DNA of 64,000 nucleotides from Opitutia bacterium. GTDB lineage: Bacteria; Verrucomicrobiota; Verrucomicrobiia; Opitutales; Opitutaceae. Position 1 is the stretch's first letter. Every line of letters begins with the position of its first letter. The position numbers were made by a program, and so were the translations under genes. Positions 8,651-29,912 of the stretch are shown here, piece after piece. Below the pieces are notes generated by a model, which made no database searches, had not been told where the DNA came from, and saw nothing but the letters and a program-made list of their open reading frames with translations. The stretch is taken from positions 352,001 through 416,000 of the forward strand of contig CANJVR010000003.1 in assembly GCA_947478395.1 (NCBI GenBank), in the 5' to 3' direction.

Positions 8651-9319
8651 TTATTTTTTTCGCCGAAGCGGCTGGCTTTCCCGGGGGCGGACGGCGAGGT
8701 CTGCGACCATCGTGTTGAGCTCGGCGAGACCGAACCCGATCTTTTTGAAAAACGAGTCGTCGTGCCGTACCACGACGAACCGCGAATGGTGCGTCCATAG
8801 TTTGCGGAGCCGGGCATCGAGCTTCGCGGCCTGCTTGATCGATTCATTGCGCACGGGATTGCCGCCCTCCACCTGCAGGCCGCCTATGGCGGCGCTCTCA
8901 AAAAAAATCACGCCGTCATAACGCGCGAGTTCGTGCTCGAGGGTGGTGCCGAGCGCGTCGAAAAAATCGCCCGGTGCTCCAGGCCAATAGGCCGCGCCAT
9001 CTACCGTGCCGCGGTCGCAGAGCAGGATGCGGTCGGGGTAGCGCGCGGATTGCACGTCCTCGAGATTGCGTTGTACGTGGAAGATGGCGCGCTGCGCGGC
9101 GAGGAGGCCGGCGCGCTGGGTGTAGCGGGGAAAACCGCCGGAAAAAATTAACGTGGCCGCTTCTGGCACGACGACGACCCGCTCGCCGATTTCCCGGCGA
9201 AATAGGTCCGCCGCCGTGGTCTTTCCGCCGCCGGGCCCGCCGGTCAGCACGATGCGGCAGCGGCGGTCTCCGTTTTCGTCCTGCGATCGGTGGACGAGTT
9301 TGGGTTTAGGTCGCGCCAT
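8651..9319 (-). CDS. AAA_28 / NadR-Ttd14-like P-loop NTPase
   Basis: IVLTGGPGGGKTT Walker A, VPEAAT, LLCDRGTVDG. Confidence 0.8.
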   Translation of the reverse strand: MARPKPKLVHRSQDENGDRRCRIVLTGGPGGGKTTAADLFRREIGERVVVVPEAATLIFSGGFPRYTQRAGLLAAQRAIFHVQRNLEDVQSARYPDRILLCDRGTVDGAAYWPGAPGDFFDALGTTLEHELARYDGVIFFESAAIGGLQVEGGNPVRNESIKQAAKLDARLRKLWTHHSRFVVVRHDDSFFKKIGFGLAELNTMVADLAVRPRESQPLRRKK

Positions 9320-9417
9320 GGTCATGGTGGGGCGGATTTTTTCGGGATCGATAAGTGGAAGCGCGGTTGAAATTTCGTTCGTCTGGCTGCGCCCACGCGG
9401 CCTTTTGCGCGGTCTGG

Positions 9418-9720
9418 TCAGCGGCGGGCCCGGCGAAAAGCCGACACTGCGCCGAAGGCTCCGGGCAACCAGCGCAGCACCGTGCCGAGCAATTTGAAGC
9501 GAGGAAACGCCACCCGCACGGCGACCCCGGCCAGGGGACCCGCCGCGAACGTGGCGAAGGGTGCGAGCTGGCGCCAGAGACTGTAAGCGCGATCGATCCA
9601 CGCCAGCGGTTTACTCACCGCCGCTGCGACCTCAAGGTAGTGCACGCGGCGGTGGGCCATCGACTGACGCACCACGGCCTTGCGGCGGGCCAGCTGGTTT
9701 AATTCTCCTTGGGGATACAT
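9418..9720 (-). CDS. YqjK-like protein
   Basis: Basic amphipathic N-terminus plus hydrophobic C-terminus; third gene after ElaB/YqjD and YqjE-like genes. Confidence 0.6.
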   Translation of the reverse strand: MYPQGELNQLARRKAVVRQSMAHRRVHYLEVAAAVSKPLAWIDRAYSLWRQLAPFATFAAGPLAGVAVRVAFPRFKLLGTVLRWLPGAFGAVSAFRRARR

Positions 9721-10085
9721 GCGCGGTCTTCCTTGAGCTCATCGATGGTCGCAGCGAACGGCCGCGGCTGGCGCGCGAGGTAGCGCTGGAACGCGATGAC
9801 AATCGCCACCGCCGCACCTGAGTAGAGCAACGTCAGCCCACCCAGAACGGTGAGTCGCGCGCTTTCCCAGAAAAAATAAACCAGCGTGAGGCTCGCGAAG
9901 GTGAGGGCCATCGCGCCCGCAAACATCGCTGCACTGATCCAGATGAACGATTGGAGCAGGCGGAATTTCTCCTCCTGCAGCTCGAGCGAAACAAGTTCGA
10001 CCCGATCCTGCAGGCTGCCGAGGAGCGCGTCGCCGAGCTCGCGGAACGAGTCCAAGATGCCCGGCGGGCGATCGCGAGGGGACAT
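9699..10085 (-). CDS. YqjE-like (phage holin family) membrane protein
   Basis: RVELVSLELQEEK, two TM helices, PFAATIDELKEDR. Confidence 0.8.
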   Translation of the reverse strand: MSPRDRPPGILDSFRELGDALLGSLQDRVELVSLELQEEKFRLLQSFIWISAAMFAGAMALTFASLTLVYFFWESARLTVLGGLTLLYSGAAVAIVIAFQRYLARQPRPFAATIDELKEDRACIPKEN

Positions 10086-10096
10086 GGTCATCGCCC

Positions 10097-10414
10097 TTAC
10101 TTTGAGCGCCGGCTGACGAGCAGGCCAATCACGACGCCGACGCCCGCGGCGATGGCGAGCGACTGGTACGGGTTTTCGCGGATCGCCTCGTCGGCGGAAC
10201 GGACGCCCGCCGCCACTTTTTTCTTCGTGCCGTCGTAGAGGTCCGACAGGCGTTCCTGGGCCGCGGTGAATCGCGCCCGCATGGCTTCCATGGCTTCGTG
10301 GGAGTGTTCGGAGACGGAGGTCTCCATCATTTTTTCCGCCTCCACCACGAGGTGACGGAGATCGTTGAGGAGTTCTTCGGGCGTTTCAGCTGGAATGTGA
10401 GTGCGATTTTTCAT
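10097..10414 (-). CDS. ElaB/YqjD/DUF883 tail-anchored ribosome-binding protein
   Basis: C-terminal IRENPYQSLAIAAGVGVVIGLLVSRR. Confidence 0.9.
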   Translation of the reverse strand: MKNRTHIPAETPEELLNDLRHLVVEAEKMMETSVSEHSHEAMEAMRARFTAAQERLSDLYDGTKKKVAAGVRSADEAIRENPYQSLAIAAGVGVVIGLLVSRRSK

Positions 10415-10483: not shown

Positions 10484-10768
10484 TTAGGCGGCGAAGCCGA
10501 ACCGGTCTTTCACGGCCACCACGTCGATCGAGAGGCATTCGCGCAGCATCGCGGCGGCGATGCGGTCGATCGCGACCTTGAGCATGCGGTCAAAGGCGTG
10601 GCCCGTCAGCGGCGCGCCGTGATGGCGGATGGCCTTGATGCGGGCCCCGGCGGCCAGCAGATGCATGAGGAATTCCTCCGCTTCCACGGGGTCGTCGGTA
10701 AAATGGGTAAACACGCGGGTGCTGTGCTGAGGGCGTACAATGTAATCGATGGCGAATTGGGTGAGCAT
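10484..10768 (-). CDS. Hypothetical protein (94 aa)
   Basis: Co-directional in the operon with plausible globular composition; no recognised domain. Confidence 0.7.
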   Translation of the reverse strand: MLTQFAIDYIVRPQHSTRVFTHFTDDPVEAEEFLMHLLAAGARIKAIRHHGAPLTGHAFDRMLKVAIDRIAAAMLRECLSIDVVAVKDRFGFAA

Positions 10769-10816: not shown

Positions 10817-11539
10817 TTACGCGACGGTGGTTTGGTTCGGGGAGAGGCGGGCATGAAACTCGCGGGCTCTTTCGAGCAACTGGGCGTCGGTCAGATGATG
10901 TTCATCGACCACGAGAGTACCCACGATGCGGCGGGCGATTTCCGGACGATGAGATTTAACCCACGCGACAAACTGTTCCATCTCGCTGCCCTGGCCTTTG
11001 CCGCTGCCGAAAATCACGATCTCTCCGTCTTTCTTCAGCGACGCGGGCGTGGAGATGAGCGCGTTTACAACCGCACCGAAGAAACTGTTCGCATCCGGTT
11101 TCTCCATGCCCCGCGAAAAATCCTTGGAGTTGTGGGCATGGCGGAAGAATTCGTGCGGGCCTTGGGACAGGATCTGCTGGGCCGCCTTGGGTGGCATCTC
11201 GGAGTGAAAAATCCGGGCCTGATGGTGGTTGATGACTACAAGCCAGTGAGATTTCCCGACAATGGTTGCTGGCAGCGGCGTTTCCGATTGCTCAAGAAAC
11301 TTTCGCAGCTCGGTGAGTTCGAAAAGGTCGGTGACCTCCTTGGTGCGGGGGACATGGAGCGTGAGGGTGCGACCGTTGCGAGTGGCTTTGAGGTTACCGT
11401 TGGCCTCCTCGGTGACTGCGCCCAGCTGACGCAGCAGGATATAGACGTCATGCCAGACGAGATTGTGCGGCGCGGGATGGTGAAATATCGATTCGTAGGT
11501 CTGGAGTTGTGAGCCCGTGAGCGAGGAGGATGAGGTCAT
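10817..11539 (-). CDS. Two-domain protein: HicA-like N-terminus + release-factor-related (baeRF/host-attachment-like) C-terminus
   Basis: N-terminal YESIFHHPAPHNLVWHDVYILLRQLG...LTLHVP; C-terminal LVVINHHQARIF...FFGAV...IVIFGSG...HLTDAQLLERAREF. Confidence 0.6.
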   Translation of the reverse strand: MTSSSSLTGSQLQTYESIFHHPAPHNLVWHDVYILLRQLGAVTEEANGNLKATRNGRTLTLHVPRTKEVTDLFELTELRKFLEQSETPLPATIVGKSHWLVVINHHQARIFHSEMPPKAAQQILSQGPHEFFRHAHNSKDFSRGMEKPDANSFFGAVVNALISTPASLKKDGEIVIFGSGKGQGSEMEQFVAWVKSHRPEIARRIVGTLVVDEHHLTDAQLLERAREFHARLSPNQTTVA

Positions 11540-11681: not shown

Positions 11682-12416
11682 TCAGGCGGCGAGGTGGCCA
11701 TTTGCGTGGGCGGTTTCAAACCAAGCGGAAGGGGGTGAACCGGGCGCGAACTCCGGGCACGTCTCGGCGAGCAGTTTGCGAAGATTTTCGCGTGCGCGGG
11801 CGATGCGGCTCTTGACCGTCCCGACCTTGATGTGAAGCGCCTGCGCGATCGCCTCGTAGGAGTAGTGATGGATGTTGTGCAGCGTCAGAATCTCGCGCCG
11901 CTCGGCGGAGAGTCGCTCCATGCAGGTGGCGATGAGCGCGGAAAATTCCCCGTTAACGGCTTCGCGTGTGGGATCGGGCGCCTCTGAGGCGATGAGTTCG
12001 GTGAAGGTGGCGCCGGCGTGGGCTGTGAGCGGGTAGTCGAGCGAAAGCGTGGCGTGGCGGTGGCGCCGGACGTAATACCAGTAGCGGTTGCGCGCGAGAT
12101 TCGTCGCGATGTGGTGCAACCACGTGGCGAGCGAGCAGTCGCCGCGGAAACGGCCGAGACCGCGATGCGCCCGGAGGAATGTGTCCTGCGTGATTTCCTC
12201 GGCGTCGGCCCGGTCGTGGAGCATGCCGAGGACCTTCGCGAAAGTTTTCCGCTCGTGGCGGTGCATGATCTCGATGAAAGACGTCTCGTCGCCGCCGTTG
12301 AAACGGCGCACAAGCCCGGCATCGATGGCGGCTTCGCATTTAGCGGCGGCGTGTGGGCCGGCCTGATCGGCCGTGAACGAGTGCGGGGAGGCGGGGGTGG
12401 GGTGAACGGTGGACAT
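11682..12416 (-). CDS. ECF RNA polymerase sigma factor
   Basis: Region 2 DAEEITQDTFLRAH...LATWLHHIATN; region 4 YSYEAIAQALHIKVGTVKSRIARAR. Confidence 0.92.
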   Translation of the reverse strand: MSTVHPTPASPHSFTADQAGPHAAAKCEAAIDAGLVRRFNGGDETSFIEIMHRHERKTFAKVLGMLHDRADAEEITQDTFLRAHRGLGRFRGDCSLATWLHHIATNLARNRYWYYVRRHRHATLSLDYPLTAHAGATFTELIASEAPDPTREAVNGEFSALIATCMERLSAERREILTLHNIHHYSYEAIAQALHIKVGTVKSRIARARENLRKLLAETCPEFAPGSPPSAWFETAHANGHLAA

Positions 12417-12451: not shown

Positions 12452-13420
12452 TCAGGCCGCGCTGGCGAAGGAGAAGGAACTGCTGATGGACCGTGCGGAC
12501 TGGTGCAGCCGGTCGTGATAGCGCGAAGGCGATTCGCCGGCGATGCGGTGGAACACCCGGTTGAATTGCGAAAGCGACTGGAAGCCGGCCGCGAAGGCGG
12601 CCTCGCTCATGCGGGCGTGGGGATTGAGCAGCATATGCTTCACGGTCTCGACGCGTAGCCGCGCCAAGTACTCCGTAAACGTAAGGCCCGTCACCTTTTT
12701 GAAGACCTTGCAGAAATAAAACGCACTCATGTTGGCTACGCGGGCAACATCCGCGAGGGCCAGATCCTCGCTCTGTTGCGCCGCGATGAACGCGCGCGCC
12801 CGGGCGATGGCGGGCAATTCGGACTGTGCTTCGCTGACCATCACCTGATTGCTCAGCGAACCGAGGTGCTGGGCAAAAATTCCCAAGAGTCGAACGACGG
12901 AGTCGTAGTGTTTTTTCGCCACGACCCGAGTTTTGAAAAAAGCTGTTTCGAGCTCGTGACGGTCGACGCTCGATCCCCACTGGGTCAGTTGATTGGCGAT
13001 ACGGTTAAAATGGGTCCGTGAAGTTTTTTTCATGAATACCTGGCCCGTCTGCAAATAGCCGAGAACCTCGTTTCCGGCCCGCACCGGAATCGCGGATTCA
13101 GTCAGGCCGGCGAAGCACACCAGCGTTTTCGCCTCGGCGGCGGCTTCCGTTTCCACGCGCTGCTGGAGTTGCAGGCAGGCCGCGCACGATTTGTTGCTCG
13201 AGGCCAGCAGCGCGCAAAAGGCGTTGGCGTGCTTGGAGCCGTAAAGCGGGGATTGAAATGATCCTCGCTGCCGGAGCACCAGCGGCAGGCCCGTGGTAGC
13301 TTCGAAGGCCTTCTGGTATTCGCGAAAAATTTCGGAGCGCTGCAAATGCGGAATGGCACTGCGCTCGGCGGGGTTGCGGTCGTCCGCCGGCGTCGCGGAA
13401 ATCAGAGATGTGGTTCGCAT
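12452..13420 (-). CDS. AraC family regulator with N-terminal PocR sensory domain
   Basis: PocR Cys pattern NAFC...CAAC...CFAGL...GQV; AraC HTH MSAFYFCKVFKK...AGFQSLSQFNRVF. Alternative start at 13429. Confidence 0.9.
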   Translation of the reverse strand: MRTTSLISATPADDRNPAERSAIPHLQRSEIFREYQKAFEATTGLPLVLRQRGSFQSPLYGSKHANAFCALLASSNKSCAACLQLQQRVETEAAAEAKTLVCFAGLTESAIPVRAGNEVLGYLQTGQVFMKKTSRTHFNRIANQLTQWGSSVDRHELETAFFKTRVVAKKHYDSVVRLLGIFAQHLGSLSNQVMVSEAQSELPAIARARAFIAAQQSEDLALADVARVANMSAFYFCKVFKKVTGLTFTEYLARLRVETVKHMLLNPHARMSEAAFAAGFQSLSQFNRVFHRIAGESPSRYHDRLHQSARSISSSFSFASAA

Positions 13421-13451: not shown

Positions 13452-13495
13452 GGAAATTGGAGGTGCGACCTTATCTTTATAAGGAAAATTCTTAG
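13452..13495 (-). promoter_or_regulatory. Conserved 44-bp upstream motif, copy 1 (putative NarL-type activator site)
   Basis: 31/44 identical without gaps to 15377-15420; contains the near-palindrome TAAGGAAAATTCTTA; followed on the minus strand by TTTCCC-17-TAAGAT. Confidence 0.65.
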
Positions 13496-13942: not shown

Positions 13943-14560
13943 TCAATCTTCGATTCGCGCAGGTTCCGGAGCTTCGATGTCCTGATATGCCCGGCGGATT
14001 TCTTCGAGGTGACTGCGATATTTTTCGGCGTCGCCGAAATCGATAAAATTTTTGTAACGACTGTGCGCACATTTCACGCAACCCGCGTGTTTAATGGGGC
14101 ACCAGTGTTGCTCGGTTCGCGCGGCGATCTCGGTGAAGTACGCGAGGATGCCGTTGGCGTAGGCACAGTACTCGCAGTTAAGTTTTTCGAAGAAGTTCAG
14201 ATAGTTCAGGCGATGGCGGTCGAACGCGATGTAGTCGCGCCGGCTGACTTTGGGTATGCCATAGATCGGAAAGCAGATCGCTTGATAGAGGGAGCCGATG
14301 ACGTCCGTGAGAACAATGGGGAGCAGGCAGGCCCAAATGACCGGTGCGGTGAGGAGAACGAGAAAACGGGAGTTCAGTAAATAGCGGTGGAAGCTGAGGC
14401 GGAGCGCCCGATGCTTGGTTTTCGCCACCGTAGTAAACTGCACCTTCTTCTCGTGAATTTTGTAGCAGAACTCGGTTTCTTTCTTCCGAGTTTCGCGAAT
14501 GAGTTCCTGTTCCAGCAGCCGGATCTGACCGAGCAGCGCTTCGAGTCTGTCATTTCTCAT
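13943..14560 (-). CDS. Cys-rich membrane-associated hypothetical protein
   Basis: Hydrophobic segment then CFPIYGIPKV, FEKLNCEYCAYANG, EQHWCPIKHA. Confidence 0.75.
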   Translation of the reverse strand: MRNDRLEALLGQIRLLEQELIRETRKKETEFCYKIHEKKVQFTTVAKTKHRALRLSFHRYLLNSRFLVLLTAPVIWACLLPIVLTDVIGSLYQAICFPIYGIPKVSRRDYIAFDRHRLNYLNFFEKLNCEYCAYANGILAYFTEIAARTEQHWCPIKHAGCVKCAHSRYKNFIDFGDAEKYRSHLEEIRRAYQDIEAPEPARIED

Positions 14561-14771: not shown

Positions 14772-15254
14772 TTATGCGCTGCGCAGGGTAGCTTCATTCA
14801 CGCCGGGAGCGAAGAACGCGCAGCCTGCTTCCTTGGCTAGGCGTTGCACGGTCTGTAGGCGCGGCGAATCCACGCGATCAGGCAAATCGGCGCGGCCAAA
14901 GAACGCGGCCACGGCGGTTGTGGCGTTGTGCCGCCCGGTCAGGCACTTTCCCAGCCAGCTTTCGACGGACAAAGGCAGCAGCCGGAGTACGCTGGACGTG
15001 GCGATGACGATCAAGTCGGCTTCGACCGCGGCAGCCATCGCGTGCGCCCGATACTCCGGATCCTCCAGCGTCGAAAAACTCCACGGCGACAAGTGCGGTT
15101 CCGGGCCGTCCGGAATCCGGCGGAGCAGCGCGGTAATAGTTTCCGCCGCCCACATCGCCGCGGCGATGTTTTCGTAGGCGAGGATAACGGTCATTTCGGC
15201 GGGCGTGCTGGCATCGGCGCAATCGAGTGCGGTCAAGGTGGCGGGGGTGTGCAT
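14772..15254 (-). CDS. Hypothetical alpha/beta protein
   Basis: Alternating strand/helix pattern (VILAYEN, WSF, ADLIVIA, AVAAFF); preceded by motif copy 2. Confidence 0.7.
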   Translation of the reverse strand: MHTPATLTALDCADASTPAEMTVILAYENIAAAMWAAETITALLRRIPDGPEPHLSPWSFSTLEDPEYRAHAMAAAVEADLIVIATSSVLRLLPLSVESWLGKCLTGRHNATTAVAAFFGRADLPDRVDSPRLQTVQRLAKEAGCAFFAPGVNEATLRSA

Positions 15255-15465: not shown

Positions 15466-16731
15466 GTGACGCGTAACGCTACGACGGTGCCGTCGAGAGA
15501 TTTTTCCACCCCGACCAAGGAAGAATTGATTGCGCGCTTGGAGCGTTTCGCGCGTGAGCGGACCGAATCCGAACGCGAACTGCGCGCCGTGGTGAAGGAG
15601 TTGCGCGCCGTGAAAGCGGCGCTCGACGAACATGCGATCGTCGCGATCACGGACGCGGCCGGAAAAATCACGTACGTAAACGACAAGTTTTGCGCGATTT
15701 CAAAAATCTCCCGCGAGGAATTGCTGGGCCAGAATCATCGCATCATCAACTCGGGCTATCACCCTAAGGAATTTTTTCGCAGTCTCTGGGCGACCATCAG
15801 CCGCGGCGAAATTTGGCATGGTGAAATCCAGAACCGTGCGAAGGACGGGGAGATTTATTGGGTCAATACCACGATCTACCCGTTTGTCAGCGAGGACGGA
15901 AAGCCGGTCCAGTACGTCGCCATTCGCACGGACATCACGCAGCGCAAGGCGGACGAAATTGAACTGCAGCAATTCGCATCCGATCTGGCGGAAAAGAACA
16001 AGGAGCTAGAGGCGATTGTTTATACCGTGTCGCACGATCTGCGTTCGCCGCTGTTGAACGTCCAGGGCTTTGCGCGGCAGCTCGCGCAGGCGTGCGCTTC
16101 AATCCAAGGGGCGACCGCCGCGGCGCACGACGGCCTGGTTCCAGTCGCCGCGTTGAAGGCACCGCTCGAAACCACCATTCCGCAGGCGCTGCGGTTCATC
16201 AGCGCGGGCGTGCACAAAATGGAGATGCTGCTCGCCGGTTTGCTGCGCTACTCACGCTTGGGCCGGATGACGTTGAACATCGGCCCGATTCCCATGAACG
16301 AGCTGCTGGCGGAAATCGTCGCGGCGATGAGGTTCCAGATCGATCAGGCGGAGGCCGAAATCGTAGTCGATCTGCTCCCCGCCTGCCGCGGCGATCGCAC
16401 CCAAACCAATCAGGTTTTTTCCAACCTGATCGACAACGCGCTGAAGTTTCGCGATCCGGCCCGGCCGCTGCGGATCACGGTGACGGGTGGCATCGCCAGC
16501 GGGAAGGCGCTTTATCAGGTGGCGGACAACGGGATTGGCATTGCTCCCTCGCACCAGGCGAAGGTTTTCGAAATCTTTCATCGGTTGGACCCGGAGAAAA
16601 CGACCGGCGAGGGCCTCGGATTGACGATCGCCCAGCTCATCCTCGACCGGCAGCACGGCGGGATCAGGGTCGAGAGCCAGCCGGGCCAGGGTTCCAGTTT
16701 TTTCGTTTCCCTTCCGGCCGTCGAATCCTAG
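15466..16731 (+). CDS. PAS-domain cytoplasmic sensor histidine kinase
   Basis: [20 protein letters not shown]...[23 protein letters not shown]-box [29 protein letters not shown]. Start uncertain. Confidence 0.92.
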
Positions 16732-16747: not shown

Positions 16748-17203
16748 ATGAAAAACGCCCCGACTATTTTGATCGTCGATGACGATGAAGGTCATGCGAT
16801 CCTGATCCGACAAAATCTGGAGCTGGCTGGTTTGAGTAACCGCATGGAGCATTTCTGGAATGGGCAGGAAGTTTTAGATTTTCTTTTTCTCCGTCAGCCC
16901 GACCGCTCCCGAGAAATTGGGGAAAATTATCTAGTCCTGCTCGATATGCGCATGCCGAAGGTCGACGGCGCGGAAGTCCTGCGGCAGATCAAGGCGGATC
17001 CGGAGTTACGCAAGCTGTCGGTCATCATGTTGACGACGACGGAGGACGCCCGCGACGTGGAGCGGTGCCACGAATTGGGGTGCAGCGTGTACGTGCAAAA
17101 GCCGGTAGACTACGACCGGTTTACCGAGGCGGTCCGCCGGCTCGGGCTTTTCGTGCCGCTAATGCTGACGCCACCGTTGAACGGGCCGCCGGCGAAGTCC
17201 TAG
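16748..17203 (+). CDS. Single-domain response regulator (Rcp1-like)
   Basis: ILIVDDD, LLDMRMPKVDG, MLTTT, YVQKP. Confidence 0.92.
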   Translation: MKNAPTILIVDDDEGHAILIRQNLELAGLSNRMEHFWNGQEVLDFLFLRQPDRSREIGENYLVLLDMRMPKVDGAEVLRQIKADPELRKLSVIMLTTTEDARDVERCHELGCSVYVQKPVDYDRFTEAVRRLGLFVPLMLTPPLNGPPAKS

Positions 17204-19952: not shown

Positions 19953-19993
19953 CCGCAAGATCTGCACAGCCTTGGCCAACCCGCGCGGAGCCC
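19953..19993 (+). promoter_or_regulatory. 41-bp motif copy X (putative AraC-type tandem site) upstream of nitroreductase
   Basis: 33/41 identical to 21410-21450; followed after 17 bp by TAGATT. Confidence 0.65.
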
Positions 19994-21352: not shown

Positions 21353-21393
21353 TGGCTCCGCACCGATTGGCGAACCATGCGCATGTTTTGGCT
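21353..21393 (-). promoter_or_regulatory. 41-bp motif copy Z (inverted) facing the dksA unit
   Basis: Reverse complement 26/41 identical to copy Y, keeps GCCAA-N5-GCGGAGCC; followed after 17 bp by CACAGT in an extended -10 context (TGnCACAGT). Confidence 0.55.
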
Positions 21394-21409: not shown

Positions 21410-21450
21410 CCGCAAGAAACGCACAGGCTCCGCCAAGCCACGCGGAGCCC
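21410..21450 (+). promoter_or_regulatory. 41-bp motif copy Y upstream of the DUF2934-cco operon
   Basis: CCGCAAGA-N3-GCACAG-N5-GCCAA-N4-CGCGGAGCCC; followed after 18 bp by TACAGT in an extended -10 context (TGnTACAGT). Confidence 0.65.
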
Positions 21451-21498: not shown

Positions 21499-21708
21499 AT
21501 GAAAAATAACTCCGCCGTGCTGCACGAACCCACCGAGGCCGAAATTCAACATCAGGCGTACCTCATTTGGTGTGAAGGGGGCTGCCGCGACGGCACCGCC
21601 TTGGAGGACTGGCAAGCTGCCCAAGAGTTGCTGCGGCACCGGCATGGCCGGGCCCATCCGGCGCCCAAAATACTCGCAGGCAAACGGCCCGCGCTCGGCG
21701 CTCGCTGA
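21499..21708 (+). CDS. DUF2934 domain protein
   Basis: EIQHQAYLIWCEGGCRDGTALEDWQAAQELL. Confidence 0.85.
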   Translation: MKNNSAVLHEPTEAEIQHQAYLIWCEGGCRDGTALEDWQAAQELLRHRHGRAHPAPKILAGKRPALGAR

Positions 21709-21717
21709 ACCACGGCT

Positions 21718-21975
21718 ATGGCCGTCGTACCACTCACCCTCACGATCAGTCTCTGCCTCGTCGTCACCTTCCTGGTTTTTTTCCTCTGCGAGCACGCGCG
21801 CGGGCGCCTGAGCAGTGCGGAACGCGATTCCCTGCTCCCGCTTGGCGATGAAACGCCCCACTTCGCCGCCGCGAAATCAGCCGCCGAGCCGAAGGCCAAG
21901 GCGCACGGCAGCGGCTGCGGCTGCCACGACGGCTTCCGCCCGCCGTGCCCCGGCTGCTTGAAACACCACGACTGA
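21718..21975 (+). CDS. ccoS: CcoS/FixS-like cbb3 maturation protein with Cys/His-rich tail
   Basis: N-terminal TM, AERDSLLPLGDE, position just before ccoN. Confidence 0.6.
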   Translation: MAVVPLTLTISLCLVVTFLVFFLCEHARGRLSSAERDSLLPLGDETPHFAAAKSAAEPKAKAHGSGCGCHDGFRPPCPGCLKHHD

Positions 21976-21990: not shown

Positions 21991-24318
21991 ATGTCCGACA
22001 AGAAAATCACCCTCGAGTTTAACGACAAAGTCGTACGCCAGTTCCTGCTCGCCTCCGTCATTTGGGGCGCCGTGGGCATGATCGTGGGCGTGCTGATCGC
22101 GTCGCAGCTCAACTTCTGGCGTCTCAATTTCAACCTGCCGTGGCTCACCTTCGGCCGGTTGCGACCCCTGCACACCAACGCGGTCATTTTCGCACTCGTG
22201 GGCAACATGATGTTTGCCGGCGTTTATTATTCCACCCAGCGGCTCGTGAAGGCGCGGCTCGCGAGTGATTTTCTCTCGGCGCTGCACTTCTGGGGCTGGC
22301 AGGCCATCATCGTCGCCGCCGCGATCACGCTCCCGCTCGGGTTCTCCCGCGGCAAGGAATACGCGGAGCTGATCTGGCCGATCGACATCGCCGTCACACT
22401 CATCTGGGTCGTGTTTGCGGTGAATTTTTTCTGGACGCTCGCGCGCCGGCGCGAGCCGAGCCTCTACGTCGCGATCTGGTTCTACATCGCGACGATCGTC
22501 ACCGTGGCGATGCTCTACATCGTCAACCATCTCTCGTTGCCGACGAGTTTGGTGCACAGCTATCCGCTTTTCGGCGGGGTGCAGGATGCGCTCGTGCAGT
22601 GGTGGTACGGGCACAACGCCGTGGCGTTCTTCCTCACCACACCGATCCTCGGCATCATGTATTACTTTCTGCCGAAGGCGGCGGAACGTCCGGTGTATTC
22701 CTACCGGCTCTCGGTGATTCATTTCTGGTCGCTCGTCTTCGTCTACATCTGGGCCGGTCCGCATCATTTGCTGAACACCGCACTGCCCGGCTGGCTGCAA
22801 AATCTCGGCATGACCTTCTCGCTCATGCTCTGGGCCCCGTCATGGGGCGGCATGCTCAACGGCCTGCTCACGCTCCGCGGCGCCTGGCACAAACTCCGCA
22901 CCGATCCGGTTCTGAAATTTTTCGCGGCCGCGGTCACATTTTACGGCATGGCGACGTTTGAGGGGCCGCTTCTCTCAATCAAGTCGGTCAACGCGCTCGC
23001 GCATTACTCCGACTGGATCATCGGCCACGTCCACGCCGGCGCCCTCGGCTGGAACGGCTTCATGGCGGCAGGCATGTTCTACTGGCTCGTGCCGCGGCTC
23101 TGGAGCAAACCGCTCCACTCGGTCGCGATGGCCAACCTGCACTTCTGGATCGGGACGGTCGGCATTCTCCTCTACGTTGCGGCGATGTGGACGAGTGGGA
23201 TCACGCAGGGCGTGATGCTCAACGCCACCACCGACGGTGGCACCGTCCTCGCTTACCCCAACTTTCTCGATACGCTTAATGCCATTCGATTCATGATGCT
23301 GATGCGCGTCGTAGGGGGCGCGCTGTATTTCACCGGTTGGTTGCTCATGGCTTTCAACCTCTGGAAAACCATCCGCCACGCCCAGCCGGTCAACGGCACG
23401 ATCGAGGTGTTCGAAGATGAGCCGGTCGCCGCCGCCGCCGAAACCGGACTCTCGGTGCTCGGCACTTTCCTCAACCCGCCCGTGCTGTTCTCGATCTTCG
23501 GCATCGCATTCGCGAGCGCGTGGATGTTTGGCAATCATCTCCTGAGCGTCGCCGGTCTCGTCGGTCTGATGCTCAGCGTCATTCTCGCTTACTCGCATTT
23601 CGAGTCGCGCGGCAAAGCCTGGGCGGGATGGTACGACCGGCTCCTCGTGAATTCGCTGCCGTTCACCTTGCTGACGTTGCTCGCGGTGGTCGCCGGCGGG
23701 CTGATCCAGATCATCCCGACGGTGCTCGTCGAGAAAGCCGTGAATCTCGAGGACCGTCGGCAGATTCCTTACACGCCGCTCGAACTCGCCGGTCGCGATC
23801 TCTATGTGCGCGAGGGCTGCTATAACTGCCATTCACAGATGATCCGTACGCTCGTCCCGGATGTCCTCCGCTACGGCGACTATTCGCGCCTCGGCGAATC
23901 GATCTACGATCATCCATTTCAATGGGGCTCGAAGCGCACCGGTCCGGATCTCGCCCGCGAAGGCGGGAAGTATCCGAACATCTGGCACCTCCGCCACCTT
24001 GAGGACCCGCGCGGCATTTCCCCCGGATCGAACATGCCGAACTATCCCTGGCTCATCGCGGCCACGCTCGATACGAGCACGCTGTCCAAGAAGATCGCCG
24101 CCCAACGCGCGATTGGCGTGCCGTATCCGAACTGGACGCCCGAGCAAATCGCCACCCGCGTCGACGAGCAAGCGAAGGCCATCGCTCAGGATCTGCGCAC
24201 CGCCGGCGCCTTTGTCGCACCGGACAAAGAGGTCATCGCGCTCATCGCCTACCTTCAAAAGTTGGGCTCCTACGAGATCGTGCGCGGCGGGCCGACAAAA
24301 GTAGCGGGTAGCGAATAG
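21991..24318 (+). CDS. ccoNO: cbb3-type cytochrome c oxidase fused subunits I/II
   Basis: FGRLRPLHTN, QWWYGHN, WAGPHH, WIIGHVH; CcoO part EGCYNCHSQMIR, WGSKRTGPDL, SNMP. Confidence 0.97.
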   Translation: MSDKKITLEFNDKVVRQFLLASVIWGAVGMIVGVLIASQLNFWRLNFNLPWLTFGRLRPLHTNAVIFALVGNMMFAGVYYSTQRLVKARLASDFLSALHFWGWQAIIVAAAITLPLGFSRGKEYAELIWPIDIAVTLIWVVFAVNFFWTLARRREPSLYVAIWFYIATIVTVAMLYIVNHLSLPTSLVHSYPLFGGVQDALVQWWYGHNAVAFFLTTPILGIMYYFLPKAAERPVYSYRLSVIHFWSLVFVYIWAGPHHLLNTALPGWLQNLGMTFSLMLWAPSWGGMLNGLLTLRGAWHKLRTDPVLKFFAAAVTFYGMATFEGPLLSIKSVNALAHYSDWIIGHVHAGALGWNGFMAAGMFYWLVPRLWSKPLHSVAMANLHFWIGTVGILLYVAAMWTSGITQGVMLNATTDGGTVLAYPNFLDTLNAIRFMMLMRVVGGALYFTGWLLMAFNLWKTIRHAQPVNGTIEVFEDEPVAAAAETGLSVLGTFLNPPVLFSIFGIAFASAWMFGNHLLSVAGLVGLMLSVILAYSHFESRGKAWAGWYDRLLVNSLPFTLLTLLAVVAGGLIQIIPTVLVEKAVNLEDRRQIPYTPLELAGRDLYVREGCYNCHSQMIRTLVPDVLRYGDYSRLGESIYDHPFQWGSKRTGPDLAREGGKYPNIWHLRHLEDPRGISPGSNMPNYPWLIAATLDTSTLSKKIAAQRAIGVPYPNWTPEQIATRVDEQAKAIAQDLRTAGAFVAPDKEVIALIAYLQKLGSYEIVRGGPTKVAGSE

Positions 24319-24393
24319 GTCGAACCACGAAGGACCGACTCCCGCGCCCCGCTTTTCCTCCGCCTTCTCCACCCATTCCTTCTTTTCCCTCCC

Positions 24394-24591
24394 GTGTTCA
24401 AACGACTCGTCTTTGAAGAATCCGCTGCGCTGTTCACCATCACCGCTTTTGTCACCGCGGTCTCGATCTACGTCGCCGTCACTTGGCGCGCCGTGCGGAT
24501 GAAGCGTCCGCAACTTGAGCGCTTTGAGAACCTGCCTTTCGCCATCGCCACGCCCGCCGCCGTCCATGACACCGACCAACTTTCCGCCTGA
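24394..24591 (+). CDS. ccoQ: CcoQ-like small subunit
   Basis: Single TM followed by ERFENLPF; lies between ccoO and ccoP. Confidence 0.6.
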   Translation: MFKRLVFEESAALFTITAFVTAVSIYVAVTWRAVRMKRPQLERFENLPFAIATPAAVHDTDQLSA

Positions 24592-25144
24592 AGACACCGA
24601 TCGTCTCCGTCACCACCGCTTCGACGGCATTCAGGAATTCGACAAGCGCCTCCCAAACTGGTGGCTGATGACACTCTACGGCTCGATCCTCTTCTGGGTC
24701 GGCTACTGGGGTTACTACCAATGGCTGAAAGCCGGCCCGGACGGCCCGCAGGAAATCACGCTGGCGATGAGCCGGATTGAGGCGGCGCGCCTCGCCTCGG
24801 CGCCGACGACGGACGATCCCAGCCTTTGGAAAATGAGCCGCAACCCCGTGATCGTCGAGTCGGGCCGGGCCACATTCAACACCACGTGCGCAAGCTGTCA
24901 TACCGACAAGCTCACCGGCGCGATCGGCCCCAACTTGGTCGACCGGCTCTGGATTCACGGCGGCAAACCCGCGGAAATCTACGTTACGGTGGACAAGGGC
25001 GTGCTCGCTAAAGGCATGCCGCCGTGGGGCCCCATCCTCGGCCCCAAGAAAGTCAGTGAGGCCGTCGCTTATATTCTCAGTTATCACACCGAAGGAGAAC
25101 CCATCGAGGTGCAGGCCGCGTGGATTCCCGTGCTGCCGAAGTGA
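24566..25144 (+). CDS. ccoP: cbb3 subunit III, short mono-haem form
   Basis: HRFDGIQEFDKRLPNWW, one CASCH, GPNL, GMPPW. Confidence 0.9.
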   Translation: MTPTNFPPEDTDRLRHHRFDGIQEFDKRLPNWWLMTLYGSILFWVGYWGYYQWLKAGPDGPQEITLAMSRIEAARLASAPTTDDPSLWKMSRNPVIVESGRATFNTTCASCHTDKLTGAIGPNLVDRLWIHGGKPAEIYVTVDKGVLAKGMPPWGPILGPKKVSEAVAYILSYHTEGEPIEVQAAWIPVLPK

Positions 25145-25174
25145 CGCGTACATTCGCGCCGTTTCTCCTTCGTC

Positions 25175-26617
25175 ATGTCCCCTCCCGTTGCTCCGCCGCC
25201 GAACCGCGATTCTGTCACCACGATTGCGGCCGATGGCTCGCGGCGTTTGCTCTATCCGGCGGACACCCACGGTAGATTCACGCGCGCGCGTCAGTGGTCG
25301 GCCGCAGGGCTGATCGTATTCTACCTTTCGCTGCCGTGGATCAAAGTTAATGGGTATCCGGCGGTATTCCTCGATATCACGGAGCGGCGCTTCCACCTCT
25401 TCGGCCTCACGCTGGCGGCGCAGGATCTCTGGCTGATGTTTTTCCTGATCACGGGCGTCGGCTTCTCGCTCTTCTTTATCACGGCGTTGTTGGGACGCAT
25501 CTGGTGCGGCTGGGCTTGCCCGCACACGGTATTCCTCGACCACGTGTACCGCCGCATCGAACGCTGGATCGACGGCGATGCGGTCAGCCGCCGTGCGCTC
25601 GCCGCGGCGCCGCTGACGGCCGGAAAGTTTTTCAAACGCGCGCTGAAGCATACGCTCTACGTGCTCGTCTCGGCGGTGATCACGCACCTATTCCTCGCCT
25701 ACTTTGTTTCTCTGCCGGCCGTGTGGGCGATGGTGAGCGCAGCGCCCGTGGAGCATTGGAGCGCGTTTGGCTTCGTCGCGGTCTATACCGGCGGGCTCTA
25801 TTTCAACTTCGCCTGGTTTCGAGAGCAGCTCTGTATCGTCATCTGCCCGTACGGCCGCATCCAGTCGGCCTTGATCGACGACAACTCACTCGTGATTGGC
25901 TACGACGCGAAGCGCGGCGAACCCCGCGGGAAAGTGGGCCCGCCGAACGCCGGCGCGTGCGTCGCTTGCAACCGCTGCGTTCAGGTCTGCCCCACCGGCA
26001 TCGATATCCGGCAGGGCCTGCAGATGGAGTGCATCGGCTGCACGGCGTGCATCGATGCGTGCGACGACGTGATGGACCGGCTGCATCGTCCGCGGGGGCT
26101 GATTCGCTACGACTCGCAAACCGCCTTCGCCGGCAAAACCACCCGCTGGCTGCGGCCACGCACAATTTTATACGGCGTCCTGCTCACCGTGGGCGCGACC
26201 GTCGCGACTTGGGCGCTGTCGACGGTACGACCAGCCAATCTTGGCGTCACTCGGATCACGGGCGCGCCCTACATCGTCAGTGCGGACTTTGTGCGGAATC
26301 AGTTTCTCGTGCGTCTGGTCAACAAGCGCAACGAGCCCGCGCGCTTCGTGCTCCGCGTCGGGGACGCGCCGGCCGCACTTCGGCAGACCGGCCTGACCTC
26401 GACCATCGAAGTCGCCGCGCTCGCCGAGATAGTCCAGCCGTTGGTACTGCAGATGCCGCGTGCGGCGTACACCGGTCCGTTTCACTTCGAGATGCGCGTG
26501 CGGGACGAGGCGGGGACGTTTCACCTGGAACGCACCGCGGAGTTTCTCGGGCCGGAAGCGCGTTTATTGCGGGAAGACGAGGAGGATGAAAAACGTGAGC
26601 ACGAATCCAAAAAATAA
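25175..26617 (+). CDS. ccoG: cbb3 accessory 4Fe-4S protein
   Basis: GRIWCGWACP, CIVICPYGR, CVACNRCVQVCPTGIDIR, CIGCTACIDAC. Confidence 0.95.
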   Translation: MSPPVAPPPNRDSVTTIAADGSRRLLYPADTHGRFTRARQWSAAGLIVFYLSLPWIKVNGYPAVFLDITERRFHLFGLTLAAQDLWLMFFLITGVGFSLFFITALLGRIWCGWACPHTVFLDHVYRRIERWIDGDAVSRRALAAAPLTAGKFFKRALKHTLYVLVSAVITHLFLAYFVSLPAVWAMVSAAPVEHWSAFGFVAVYTGGLYFNFAWFREQLCIVICPYGRIQSALIDDNSLVIGYDAKRGEPRGKVGPPNAGACVACNRCVQVCPTGIDIRQGLQMECIGCTACIDACDDVMDRLHRPRGLIRYDSQTAFAGKTTRWLRPRTILYGVLLTVGATVATWALSTVRPANLGVTRITGAPYIVSADFVRNQFLVRLVNKRNEPARFVLRVGDAPAALRQTGLTSTIEVAALAEIVQPLVLQMPRAAYTGPFHFEMRVRDEAGTFHLERTAEFLGPEARLLREDEEDEKREHESKK

Positions 26618-26741
26618 ACCGTCGCGTCTCTGGATCTGGTTCGCCGCGGCTTGCATAGTGCAGGTCGCGGTCTGGACGGGATGGATTGTTTTCGCGTCGA
26701 AGCACCGCGTGGCCGAGGTACCGTTGGCGACGGCGCGCTGA
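26595..26741 (+). CDS. Small single-TM protein in the CcoH/FixH position
   Basis: GGAGG 9 nt before GTG; LWIWFAAACIVQVAVWTGWIVFA. Confidence 0.55.
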   Translation: MSTNPKNKPSRLWIWFAAACIVQVAVWTGWIVFASKHRVAEVPLATAR

Positions 26742-26743
26742 CC

Positions 26744-27439
26744 ATGGAACTCGCCTCGATCAATTCGACCGGCGCTGCGTTTGTTGCCGGACTTGTCACG
26801 AGTCTGCATTGCGCGGGGATGTGTGGACCGCTGGCGTGTTCGCTCATGCCGCGCGGGCCGGAGCGTTCGAGTGCCGATGCGATCAGCACGACGTATCATC
26901 TTTCACGTTTGACCGCGTATGGCGTGCTTGGAGCGCTGGCGGGCGGACTCGGGCGCGCGCCACTTTCGTGGGTATCGCAGTCGGCGCTGCGTTGGCTGCC
27001 GTGGTTCACGGTGGTGCTGTTTCTGGCGATCGCGTTTCGCTGGGACCGGCATCTGCCGAAGATCGCGCTGCTCGGTCGCGGAGTTTTGAAATTGCAGACG
27101 TGGATGCAGGGTCGTTCGCGGGTGCAGGCGGCCGCAGTCCTTGGGTTTGCCACGCCGTTGCTGCCGTGCGGGCCGCTCTATTTTCTGGTCGCGTTGGCGT
27201 TGTTGTCGGGCTCGGCGCTGCGCGGGGTGGAGTTCATGGTGGCCTTCGGGCTCGGGACGGTGCCGTTGCTGTGGGTCGCGCAATCGCAATTTTTCTGGCT
27301 GCGAACAAAACTTTCGCCGCGGGCGATGGATGGTGCGCGTCAGACGCTCGCGCTCGCGGCGGCGTTGGTGGTTGCGTGGCGGCTGCGGGGCACGCTCGGT
27401 TTCGTCGGACCGGATCCGGCGTCGTGGATTTGTTTTTGA
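26744..27439 (+). CDS. DsbD_2 / TauE-SafE-like membrane protein (cbb3 biogenesis)
   Basis: SLHCAGMCGP, LLPCGPLY, FGLGTVP. Confidence 0.88.
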   Translation: MELASINSTGAAFVAGLVTSLHCAGMCGPLACSLMPRGPERSSADAISTTYHLSRLTAYGVLGALAGGLGRAPLSWVSQSALRWLPWFTVVLFLAIAFRWDRHLPKIALLGRGVLKLQTWMQGRSRVQAAAVLGFATPLLPCGPLYFLVALALLSGSALRGVEFMVAFGLGTVPLLWVAQSQFFWLRTKLSPRAMDGARQTLALAAALVVAWRLRGTLGFVGPDPASWICF

Positions 27440-27440
27440 G

Positions 27441-29912
27441 ATGAGCGCGGCGGCCAATTTTCTGGACGTGGGCGGGGTGCCCTCACCCCGCATTGGGGGC
27501 GTCGAGCGGGGTCGGGGCACCCCGCCCACAGTTGGGAGAAAGCCATCCGTGACTTGCCGCCACTGCGGTGCCGTGCTGCTCGACGCCCGCATGCAGGAAT
27601 CCGGCTTCTGCTGCGTCGGCTGCGCCTACGTTTTCCGTCTCGTGCAGGAGCACGGCCTCGACGGCTATTACCGGATCAAGGACGAGATCACTGCGCCCGC
27701 GGATGCCGCGGTGTTTGAGTCTCGCGATTTCGGTTGGCTGGAAAGCGCGCAACGGGCAGCGGAGGATGCGACAAAAGAAATTCCGGGACTCACGCTCGAC
27801 GTTCAAGGCCTCTCGTGCGCCGGTTGCGTTTGGCTGATCGAGCGGATCTTTCAGCCTCTGCCGGGAGCGCGGGATATATTCGTCAACGCGCAGTACGGTT
27901 CGATGCGGCTGCGCTGGCAGCGCGGCGAATTTTCCGCGGTGGAGTTCGCGCGCAAGCTTCAGGGTTTCGGTTATCTCGTCGGGCCGGCCGGCGTGCATCC
28001 GGCTGAGCCGCAGAGCCGCGGGCTGGTGAAACGCATCGGGCTCTGCACGGCCTTCGCGATGAACGTCATGCTGTTCACGCTGCCGGCGTACTTCGGCATG
28101 GCGCCGACGTTTACTTATGCGCCGTTGTTTGGGCTGCTCTCGCTGGTGTTCGCGACGCTGAGCTTGCTCACGGGCGGAATTTATTTTTTTACGCGAGCGG
28201 CGCAGGCCTTGCGAGCCCGCGCGCTCAGCATCGATCTGCCGATCGCGCTCGGCATCGCCGGCGCCTACACGGGCTCGCTCTACGGCTGGTTCGCCGCGCA
28301 GGAACGCTTCATCTACTTCGATTTTGTTTCGGCCTTCATTCTCTTGATGCTCGTGGGACGTTGGGCGCAGGTCGCGGCGGTCGAGCGGAACCAGCGACGC
28401 TTGCTCTTACTGCAACCGCGCCCGCACGCGGTGAGGCTGGCCGATGGCCACACCGTTTCGCCGGAAAGTCTGCTCGGCCACGAAACGATGTTCATCGCTT
28501 CGGGTAATCTCGTCCCGGTCGAGGCGCGACTCGTGACGTCGAAAGCGGAGTTCTCGCTCGCGTCGATCAACGGCGAAGCCGAGCCGCGGTTGTTTTCCGC
28601 CGGTCAGCGTGTGCCCTCGGGCGCGATGAACGTGGGACGCGAGGACGTGTCACTCGTTGCACTCCAAGCGTGGGGCGAATCGCTGCTCGCGCAGTTGACG
28701 GCCCCGGCTGGAGCGTCGGGCTGGCGGCATGCGTTCCTGGAAAAAATTGTGCGCGGCTATCTCGCTGGGATTTTGCTCGCGGCCGCGCTGGCCGGCGTGG
28801 CGTGGTGGCTGGCGACCGGCGACGCGGTGCGGACGTGGGCGGTGGTGACTGCGACGCTGGTCGTGTCCTGCCCATGTGCCGTCGGACTCGCGTTTCCCCT
28901 CGCTGATGAAATGGCCACCGTGGCAGCGCGCCGGCGCGGCGTGTTTGTGCGCGAGGGCGAGTTGTGGGCGAAGCTCGGCCGTATCAGAAAAATCGTCTTC
29001 GACAAAACCGGGACGCTCACGTCGGAGACGCCGCAGCTGCAAAACCCCGAGGCCTTGGGCGCGTTGTTGCCCGAGCAACGCGCGGCTTTGCTCGCGCTCG
29101 TGCGGGCGCAATCGCATCCCGTGAGCCGGTGCCTGAGCGAGACCTTGCTCGCCGAGGCCGGCGGAAACGTGCTTGAAGGCGAGGTGCGTGAGACGGTGGG
29201 ATTTGGCGTCGAACTCGGAGATTGGTCGCTCGGTCGCAGCGGATGGCGCGACGCCAACGCGCCGGGTGATGAAACGGTGTTCGCGTTCGCCGGACGCGCG
29301 CTCGCGCGCTTTCGCTTCAGCGAGGCGATGCGCGCCGATGCGCGCGCCGAAGTGGCCGCACTTCGTGCGCGTGGATTTGAGGTGCACATTCTCAGCGGTG
29401 ATGCGCCGACAAAAGTCGAAGCGTTGGCGACGGCCCTCGGCTTGCCGTCCGCGCACGCTCGCTCGGCGATGTCGCCGCAGGAAAAGGCGGCGTGGCTCGA
29501 CGAGCACGGTGCAACCGACGCGTTGATGTTGGGCGACGGGGCCAACGATAGTCTGGCGTTTGATCGTGCGCTTTGTCGTGGCACGCCGGTGGTCCATCGC
29601 GGCGTGCTGGAGCGGAAGGCCGATTTTTATTATCTCGGCGGTGGCATTGGCGGGATTCGCGCTCTTATCGGGATCAACGCCGTGCGCCGCCGCACGCAGC
29701 GGATCATTTTGGGCTTCTCGATCCTCTACAATCTTCTCGCCGTCGGGCTCGCGGTGGCCGGCCAGATGAACCCGCTGCTCGCCGCCGCATTGATGCCGCT
29801 GAATTCGCTTCTGACCTTGGCGCTGGTGACGGCGGGAATGCGTTCCGCCTTTCGCGTCGAACCCAAGGATAAATCCCTTCCAGTCCAACTGGGCCAGACC
29901 GCGAGGGTTTGA
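27441..29912 (+). CDS. ccoI: CcoI/FixI P1B-type Cu ATPase
   Basis: CRHCG...FCCVGC, HMA CAGC, SCPCA, DKTGT, GDGAND. Alternative GTG start at 27549. Confidence 0.92.
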   Translation: MSAAANFLDVGGVPSPRIGGVERGRGTPPTVGRKPSVTCRHCGAVLLDARMQESGFCCVGCAYVFRLVQEHGLDGYYRIKDEITAPADAAVFESRDFGWLESAQRAAEDATKEIPGLTLDVQGLSCAGCVWLIERIFQPLPGARDIFVNAQYGSMRLRWQRGEFSAVEFARKLQGFGYLVGPAGVHPAEPQSRGLVKRIGLCTAFAMNVMLFTLPAYFGMAPTFTYAPLFGLLSLVFATLSLLTGGIYFFTRAAQALRARALSIDLPIALGIAGAYTGSLYGWFAAQERFIYFDFVSAFILLMLVGRWAQVAAVERNQRRLLLLQPRPHAVRLADGHTVSPESLLGHETMFIASGNLVPVEARLVTSKAEFSLASINGEAEPRLFSAGQRVPSGAMNVGREDVSLVALQAWGESLLAQLTAPAGASGWRHAFLEKIVRGYLAGILLAAALAGVAWWLATGDAVRTWAVVTATLVVSCPCAVGLAFPLADEMATVAARRRGVFVREGELWAKLGRIRKIVFDKTGTLTSETPQLQNPEALGALLPEQRAALLALVRAQSHPVSRCLSETLLAEAGGNVLEGEVRETVGFGVELGDWSLGRSGWRDANAPGDETVFAFAGRALARFRFSEAMRADARAEVAALRARGFEVHILSGDAPTKVEALATALGLPSAHARSAMSPQEKAAWLDEHGATDALMLGDGANDSLAFDRALCRGTPVVHRGVLERKADFYYLGGGIGGIRALIGINAVRRRTQRIILGFSILYNLLAVGLAVAGQMNPLLAAALMPLNSLLTLALVTAGMRSAFRVEPKDKSLPVQLGQTARV
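27468..27529. repeat. REP doublet (REPIN-like), GTGG-headed
   Basis: 24-bp inverted arms 27468-27491 and 27506-27529 (2 mismatches); each arm is itself a hairpin, GCGGGGTG-CCCT-CACCCCGC. Confidence 0.8.

Follow-up and report, generated by a model that had tools for sequence, protein, structure and literature searches.

A PocR-AraC regulator as candidate low-oxygen activator of cbb3 oxidase genes in Opitutaceae

To our knowledge, textbook control of cbb3 oxidases and of hemN runs nearly always through CRP/FNR proteins or RegAB-type systems, and gene regulation in the Opitutaceae is almost unstudied. Members of this family are common in soils, peat, fresh water and termite guts. Here, we analyse a 64,000-nucleotide stretch from an Opitutia bacterium (C3:352001-416000 of a 3.31-Mb genome with a completeness of 98.8%; the whole stretch is called the window), in which a cbb3 oxidase operon (cco) shares a block with a four-gene phosphorelay and with pocR-araC (pocR in short), coding for a PocR domain fused to an AraC helix-turn-helix (HTH). 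The nearest relatives of this regulator are found in Opitutaceae. The original prediction described the block as an FNR-independent hypoxia and dormancy system in which PocR-AraC takes the role of rhizobial FixK. We propose that PocR-AraC is a low-oxygen activator reading a direct repeat at the cco promoter (motif 2), and that a kinase tier would set its amount through a palindrome at pocR (motif 1) in a subset of genomes.

FNR, Anr and FnrN are single regulators that carry four conserved cysteines, act at cco, hemN, ompW, usp and genes of anaerobic metabolism, and can do without a kinase tier. PocR-AraC resembles them in its four conserved cysteines, its target set and its ability to stand without a kinase tier. 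There is no homology, however: PocR-AraC consists of a GAF-like PocR domain and an AraC HTH, and its cysteines are common to PocR domains. In the mycobacterial DosST-DosR system, a NarL-type regulator has a palindromic site and the sensors carry GAF domains. Shared with our locus are the NarL-type regulator, the palindromic site and, nearby, nitroreductase, usp and a Balon-like fold. In contrast to DosR, the nitroreductase and usp genes here carry motif 2 and not the NarL palindrome, and the sensor domain is PAS, not GAF.

FixLJ-FixK2 works with two signalling proteins, a heme PAS in FixL, a CRP/FNR protein as second tier and TTGAT-N4-ATCAA as its site. Our locus has four signalling proteins, a FAD-type PAS sensor, an AraC-family second tier with its own sensor domain and a 21-bp direct repeat as site, and its upper tier is optional. 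What it shares with the system of Bradyrhizobium diazoefficiens is a two-component tier leading via a second regulator to the cbb3 operon, with usp and hemN in the low-oxygen set (available part of PMC6515984); here, this order is seen in motif placement and co-occurrence. The sequence of soluble sensor kinase, receiver-only sink, receiver-kinase hybrid and output regulator is found in NmpRSTU of Myxococcus xanthus, which likewise controls an oxygen-utilisation regulon including a cbb3 operon (available part of PMC11841059). NmpU uses a heme protoglobin, and NmpR is an NtrC-like protein acting directly at sigma-54 promoters (same source). Our locus differs in its FAD-type PAS, its promoters of sigma-70 type, its NarL output and an AraC regulator as an extra step. 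PocR of Salmonella and Listeria shares the PocR domain, the AraC HTH and four aligning cysteines (PMC4207490, in part; record L130). It differs in that domain identity is about 30%, with a score of 84 bits against the NCBIfam PocR cut-off of 500, and in context: there are no pdu or cob genes here, the neighbours are kinase and cco genes, and the targets are respiratory.

In the open-access literature we found neither these motifs nor an AraC/PocR regulator controlling cbb3 genes described, and an Opitutaceae genome paper names the oxidase and, in its available part, mentions no regulator (PMC4358385). The system is apparently an undescribed functional analogue of FNR and FixLJ-FixK made from unrelated parts. 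One point to add to the original prediction is that the four-gene layout with two kinases is already described for NmpRSTU.

Two motifs and the regulators they accompany

Gene calls in the window were named by Pfam and NCBIfam profile matches, which confirmed the predicted phosphorelay, PocR-AraC, ECF sigma, YqjD/E, DksA, nitroreductase, DUF2934 and cco genes. The names yqjK, ccoS, ccoQ and ccoH are our assumption from position, without a family match. The core features are, in window coordinates:

12452..13420 (-), PocR-AraC regulator, GAF-like sensor domain with Cys69/79/82/102 plus AraC HTH; proposed motif-2 reader
13455..13495 (-), motif 1, palindrome plus downstream element; -10 TAAGAT 21 nt downstream, then ATG after 7 nt
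14772..15254 (-), 160-aa hypothetical protein, second motif-1 target; a similar gene lies behind motif 1 in L008
15380..15420 (-), motif 1, second copy; -10 TAGGGT 21 nt downstream
15487..16731 (+), PAS-HisKA kinase, soluble, with an uncertain start; its PAS belongs to the MmoS/Aer/NifL FAD-binding class
16748..17203 (+), receiver-only protein, probably a phosphate sink
17206..18255 (+), REC-HisKA_3 hybrid kinase
18252..18962 (+), NarL/LuxR-type response regulator; proposed motif-1 reader
19954..19990 (+), motif 2 before the nitroreductase; -10 TAGATT 20 nt downstream
20080..20655 (+), nitroreductase-family gene
20666..21055 (-), DksA/TraR-like gene, second gene behind the 21356-21392 site
21036..21323 (-), remnant of a four-cysteine gene, internally deleted
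21356..21392 (-), motif 2, arranged back-to-back to the cco site; its -10 (CACAGT) is weaker
21411..21447 (+), motif 2 at the DUF2934-cco promoter; -10 TACAGT 21 nt downstream
21499..21975 (+), DUF2934 (21499-21708) and ccoS-like gene (21718-21975)
21991..29912 (+), cbb3 oxidase operon: fused ccoNO, ccoQ-like, ccoP, ccoG, ccoH-like, DsbD_2, ccoI

The motif-2 matrix (37 bp) was built from regions upstream of the first cco-block gene in 45 relatives' loci, this genome being excluded, and the consensus CAA.AWATGCgcAgc.Y..GcCAA.ScctGCggAG is found in 43/45 of them. It is a direct repeat of two CAA-N5-GCRSA half-sites 21 bp apart, with a self-similarity of 0.30 at this period and at most 0.09 elsewhere. 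TANNNT follows at +20 in 92/142 sites and at +19 to +23 in 105/142, which places the second half-site against the -35. A direct repeat abutting the -35 is the known geometry of dimeric AraC-family activators. A simple sigma-70 scan found 0 promoters, as is expected if these promoters depend on an activator. In the whole genome, motif 2 exceeds 25 bits at four sites: before the nitroreductase, DUF2934-cco, the unit of remnant and dksA, and a usp gene (C1:54030). The site assigned to dksA lies 33 nt upstream of the 95-codon remnant ORF (21036-21323), which itself precedes dksA. An RNA element as explanation for motif 2 was rejected: the site is upstream of the -10, its spacer letters vary between genomes, and Rfam finds tRNA only. 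A predicted hairpin overlaps the cco site.

Motif 1 (41-bp matrix from upstream regions of 93 pocR genes) is led by a perfect 17-bp palindrome, CTAgGGaAatYCctTAG. TANNNT is located at +21/22 past the matrix in 57/57 cases with the start codon a few bases further. In many relatives the pocR start codon is 5-11 nt past the -10, in this genome 7 nt (13428-13420), so that the mRNA is probably leaderless or nearly so. The whole-genome scan found motif 1 twice only, before pocR-araC and before the 160-codon gene; this second copy (15380-15420) had not been listed in the original prediction. Column-shuffled matrices (10 shuffles) gave 0 matches above 25 bits, compared with 2 observed for motif 1 and 4 for motif 2. 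The predicted partition of the block, with motif 1 before pocR-araC and motif 2 before cco, the dksA unit and the nitroreductase, is supported. That each motif is a true regulatory site is more probable than the full cascade proposed below.

The original prediction had set co-occurrence in relatives as its test, and we observe that motif 1 follows NarL and motif 2 follows PocR-AraC across genomes. The synteny set comprises 80 PocR loci, many on short contigs, with a match counted if more than half of the query was covered; NarL genes are present in 47, ccoS in 32 and ccoNO in 23. Motif 1 precedes pocR in 54/55 loci holding kinase genes compared with 1/25 loci without, and this single kinase-less locus is a short contig with cut kinase genes. 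Across genomes motif 1 was found in 11/11, eight with the PAS kinase and three more with a NarL orthologue. Its pattern further matches in G120 (beside a NarL gene of 47% identity), G043 and G117. At the G120 locus (L125, G120:C11), three motif-1-like matches lie close to this NarL gene and to small heat-shock-like genes; hemN and a divergent pocR are in the neighbourhood as well, and the whole is possibly a sister system.

For motif 2 we used a family panel of 50 genomes, chosen to include all 17 PocR-negative and 33/103 PocR-positive genomes. The pattern matches in 23/33 PocR-positive and 3/17 PocR-negative genomes, with 0/50 for the reversed control. Among genomes bearing ccoN, motif 2 is present at cco in 21/29 PocR-positive genomes (five without, three ambiguous) and in 0/4 PocR-negative ones. 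Of the five genomes without a cco site, two have no close PocR HTH and one has altered recognition helices, leaving two true exceptions. Outside the family, 5/142 sampled genomes have single pattern matches (L131-L134, L141; one precedes a usp gene), compared with 5/8 inside. Pedosphaera/Limisphaera-like genomes also have PocR-AraC relatives, but with different sites.

Five genomes that combine PocR, motif 2 and cco were tested, including two congeners, and 5/5 lack both a NarL orthologue and motif 1. We conclude that PocR works without the kinase tier, which is optional, and that PocR-AraC is the core; it may sense by itself. Motif placement and co-occurrence support the predicted two-tier wiring in this genome, but equating PocR-AraC with FixK would be too simple. 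The other proteins considered as motif-2 readers do not fit. CRP/FNR and an intact four-cysteine protein are both missing in this genome, NarL is missing in congeners that have motif 2, and G004 has an ECF sigma without PocR and without motif 2.

The lack of a CRP/FNR gene, predicted for the window, extends to the whole genome with 0 HTH_Crp_2 matches. The single PF00325 match sits in a gene reading as LacI-type, and the sole cNMP domain is not joined to a Crp HTH. As predicted, no TTGAT-N4-ATCAA box with fewer than two mismatches is present at the cco promoter; the best in the window has two mismatches, and the six exact copies in the genome are all inside called genes. In relatives, no box with at most one mismatch was found within 900 nt upstream of ccoNO in 53/53 loci. 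FNR/CRP control of cco is therefore rejected. CRP/FNR genes as such are common in the family (86/121 genomes over the Pfam cut-off), and where relatives have one beside pocR, it is part of a nirK/ric module that has FNR-type boxes of its own. The term "FNR-independent" therefore applies to cco and not to all respiration genes. In L114, L118, L119 and L124, an insertion beside pocR brings in a CRP/FNR gene together with nirK, a globin gene and ric (hemerythrin/ScdA), and FNR-type boxes precede the nirK module; this insert is probably an NO-response module.

The motif-2 target set and the regulator proteins

We collected 162 motif-2 sites with a downstream ORF, from loci chosen near pocR or cco. 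A cluster made up mostly of the four-cysteine protein, with some GNAT genes, follows 59 sites, DUF2934 34, ccoS 14, CoA transferases 9 and usp 6; cytochromes c, nrdJ, hemA, hemN and pocR are fewer. In 18 further family stretches, most picked from genome-wide pattern matches, we find hemN (four genomes), hemA, hemF, ompW, HPF, an aldolase and a usp-dksA-nitroreductase group as additional targets, and relatives also have PFOR, CoA transferase and alcohol dehydrogenases behind motif 2. The microoxia-induced set of Bradyrhizobium includes cco, usp and hemN (available part of PMC6515984), and the motif-2 targets overlap with it in these three. By its gene content, the target set reads as an FNR-like low-oxygen gene set, in line with the low-oxygen character predicted for the system. 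In this genome the set is small, with cco, the remnant-dksA unit, the nitroreductase and one usp gene, and most of the relatives' targets are missing.

The four-cysteine protein, the commonest target, has about 155 aa with a CxC and a CxxC pair and usually adjoins pocR (intact copies for example at L034:2714-3220 and L092:1833-2378). From the remnant at 21036-21323 about 74 codons are deleted and 2/4 cysteines with them. Atlas features give this protein as RsbRD_N-like, which we take as a lead only. Nine loci (L029, L033, L036, L040, L042, L049, L054, L064, L124) come from genomes with two pocR paralogues, one behind motif 1 and the other behind a motif-2-driven CoA transferase gene; the latter would form a positive feedback loop.

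PocR-AraC carries the only PocR domain in the genome. Its structure model matches AraC HTH and GAF-like domains, with no CRP/FNR fold. Each of the four cysteines of the PocR domain is retained in 99-100% of 93 homologues. Sequence search found no solved PocR domain, nor was there one among the fold-search matches, although one may still exist.

For the kinase tier, the best structural-database matches of the PAS domain are MmoS, Aer and NifL (PDB 3EWK, 8DIK, 2GJ3), with E values from 1e-53 (MmoS) to 1e-16. FAD contacts in Aer and MmoS involve H, W, N and R (PMC9668731, in part). The equivalents of Aer H53, W70, N85 and R115 are kept in 50/50 aligned kinase orthologues (51 rows returned), and the Aer R57 position is N, as in MmoS. 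The conserved contact residues suggest that the kinase PAS binds FAD like these sensors; its output differs from theirs. Phospho-acceptor motifs are present in the phosphorelay. In another family (L198/L100), NarL and a single FAD-type PAS-HisKA_3 kinase lie opposite a motif-1 site that stands directly upstream of the release-factor-like gene and cco, and the 11 kb read contain no pocR. There, the same input appears to reach cco by a shorter path.

Proposed cascade and rival explanations

We propose that a PocR-AraC dimer binds motif 2 next to the -35 of sigma-70 promoters and works as the low-oxygen activator of Opitutaceae. It would activate cco and, depending on the genome, hemN, hemA, hemF, usp, ompW, class II ribonucleotide reductase, PFOR, CoA transferases and HPF. 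Some genomes, this one among them, have an upper tier that would set the amount of PocR. The soluble FAD-PAS kinase would read the respiratory redox state and pass phosphate to the sink receiver and to the receiver of the second kinase, which in turn would control the NarL regulator. NarL-phosphate would then bind the motif-1 palindrome at about -60 and activate pocR. In NmpRSTU, phosphorylation of the second kinase's receiver by the first kinase turns the second kinase off, and the output turns on a cbb3 operon at low oxygen (available part of PMC11841059). The direction of phosphate flow with its sign inversion is borrowed from this system and is assumed by analogy. The genes, domains, motifs, spacing, co-occurrence and regulon content are observed. 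The assignment of each protein to its motif follows from these patterns as a prediction, and activation instead of repression, as well as oxygen as the signal, are inferred. For the cascade as a whole we estimate a probability of about 0.68.

Several observations weigh against this cascade. In G062 and G063 a close PocR HTH is present while cco has no clear motif-2 site, G018 and G086 have PocR but neither a motif-2 pattern match nor ccoN, and G060, G081 and G085 carry a motif-2 site with no PocR found. The genomes are related and the motif-1 pocR genes fall mostly into one clade (57/58, with the congeners' genes outside), so that few independent events stand behind the co-occurrence. The matrices were trained on relatives that were later counted, which makes those positive counts circular in part; this does not apply to the scan of this genome or to the negative groups. 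In the kinase search, no more than 37 candidates were scored in each genome, and orthologues may have escaped it. Three genome-wide sites (L195, L203, L212) precede genes without an obvious oxygen link. The site L205:3164-3200 (-) lies just upstream of an aa3-type coxB, and TANNNT is missing at its usual position; a role in repressing the low-affinity oxidase is conceivable. In this genome, the hemA and hemN-like genes lack a motif-2 site. Finally, Listeria PocR and PocR-domain kinases share the same four cysteines, and the signal can thus not be read from them.

Alternatively, PocR-AraC could read motif 2 and respond to a small metabolite (a diol, alcohol or fermentation product) in the manner of classical PocR, its regulon tracking fermentative carbon flow and not oxygen. 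This would suit a bona fide PocR domain with GAF-like fold, a domain proposed to sense simple hydrocarbon derivatives according to a reference title in PMC4207490, and would suit cysteines shared with a Listeria PocR beside pdu genes as well as targets such as CoA transferases, aldolase and alcohol dehydrogenases. We consider it unlikely, given that the most constant targets are cco, hemN/hemA/hemF and usp, that motif-2 sites showed neither a pdu operon nor another one for substrate catabolism, and that the upper tier has a FAD-type redox PAS. Less probable again is a reader of motif 2 encoded elsewhere, with PocR-AraC as a linked, co-regulated gene. The three site carriers among 17 PocR-negative genomes and the four genomes that keep a close PocR without clear sites would fit such a reader, and the candidates compared were PocR-AraC, CRP/FNR, the four-cysteine protein, NarL and ECF only. 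Against it, the three carriers are draft genomes, in one with the site at a contig end, the 21-bp repeat touching the -35 fits AraC-family dimers, and pocR adjoins the cco promoter in many genomes. In L110, moreover, the only pocR with altered recognition helices, motif 2 is absent at the cco genes behind pocR.

The least probable alternative, which we regard as quite improbable, is a general stationary-phase or stress cluster assembled at tRNA-Glu with dormancy as main function and cco as passenger. The genes yqjD/E/K, ECF sigma, the Balon/eRF1-like fold, DksA, DUF2934, usp and HPF are indeed stress or hibernation genes. Yet those encoded on the pocR strand lack a motif and seldom adjoin pocR in the 80 loci (ECF 1, release-factor-like 2, yqjD 4), GC3 is ordinary, there is no att repeat, and the conserved core is made of kinase genes, pocR and cco. 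A recent island at tRNA-Glu is rejected from GC3 and the missing att repeat, with no second copy of the tRNA-Glu 3' end in the genome and hence no sign of recent integration.

For PocR-AraC as low-oxygen activator, the PocR domain itself could be the oxygen or redox sensor, with a labile metal or Fe-S centre on its four cysteines. PocR-AraC would then be an independently evolved AraC-family FNR, and the four-cysteine partner a feedback element. We regard this as possible yet rather doubtful; the cysteines were rejected as proof of an Fe-S sensor, being not discriminating.

Accessory genes and significance for Opitutaceae

The remaining features of the block are:

8497..8573 (+), tRNA-Glu(TTC); left boundary of the block
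8651..9322 (-), AAA_28 ATPase; accessory, no motif
9418..10414 (-), yqjD/elaB (10097-10414), yqjE (9699-10091) and yqjK-like (9418-9720); accessory, no motif
10484..10768 (-), 94-aa conserved hypothetical protein, often adjoining the release-factor-like gene
10817..11539 (-), two-domain release-factor-like protein, C-terminal part with eRF1/Pelota/Balon middle-domain fold; no motif here
11682..12416 (-), ECF sigma, 36 nt behind pocR; probably co-transcribed here
13943..14560 (-), 205-aa hypothetical protein; no family, no motif
19046..19861 (-), potassium-channel-like gene; accessory, no motif

YqjE matches Phage_holin_3_6 and YqjD/ElaB DUF883_C. The ECF sigma, predicted as a tier of the cascade, was dropped from it: 0/20 relatives' ECF loci have an adjacent PocR or either motif. 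Of the genes named in the prediction, the dksA unit and the nitroreductase carry motif 2. The predicted dormancy link is not supported for yqjD/E/K and the release-factor-like gene, which like the ATPase and the channel have neither motif in this genome. On the pocR strand, yqjD/E/K, the release-factor-like gene and the ATPase could be reached only by read-through from the pocR promoter.

The release-factor-like protein has 335 homologues, no Pfam match and no useful PDB sequence match. Its model matches Pelota, aRF1, eRF1 and Balon partially (best E 6.9e-6, query TM-score about 0.35), and its N-terminal part, which has no family match, presumably resembles HicA. In relatives, motif 1 precedes this gene in L100 and motif 2 in L159. 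A third palindrome-like element of the type GGG-N5-CCCCAT occurs upstream of release-factor-like genes and ECF paralogues (L150, L152, L153, L155-L158, L162, L185-L187, L189, L190). It resembles motif 1, and a different NarL-type regulator may be its reader; at 13641-13656 of the window there is a looser copy, with 6 nt as spacer. The ORF at 31122-31718 has no Pfam match, and its translation seems to resemble a broken DNA-damage-inducible (DinD-like) gene. The trees were quick trees, one of them without the truncated row L035_382, and the fold alignment used 36/37 rows (L072 omitted).

The genome encodes three heme-copper oxidase subunits I, in an aa3-type operon, in the cbb3 operon of the window and as a ccoN-like gene within a separate respiratory cluster, which leaves the cell several oxidases to choose from by regulation. 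The cluster of this second ccoN-like gene (G000 C2:876102-886522) resembles, from the inspected translations, an alternative complex III operon and is without motif 2.

A sharp 37-bp site, a candidate reader and a candidate redox kinase chain together make a testable low-oxygen master switch for the Opitutaceae. Motif 2 offers a way to read low-oxygen regulons from metagenome bins. If the proposed reading is right, an AraC protein would have taken over the gene set of FNR by convergence. A further testable question is what PocR domains bind: should the four cysteines hold a metal centre, then, as they are general to PocR domains, a domain long taken as a hydrocarbon sensor would be a metal-centre redox sensor.

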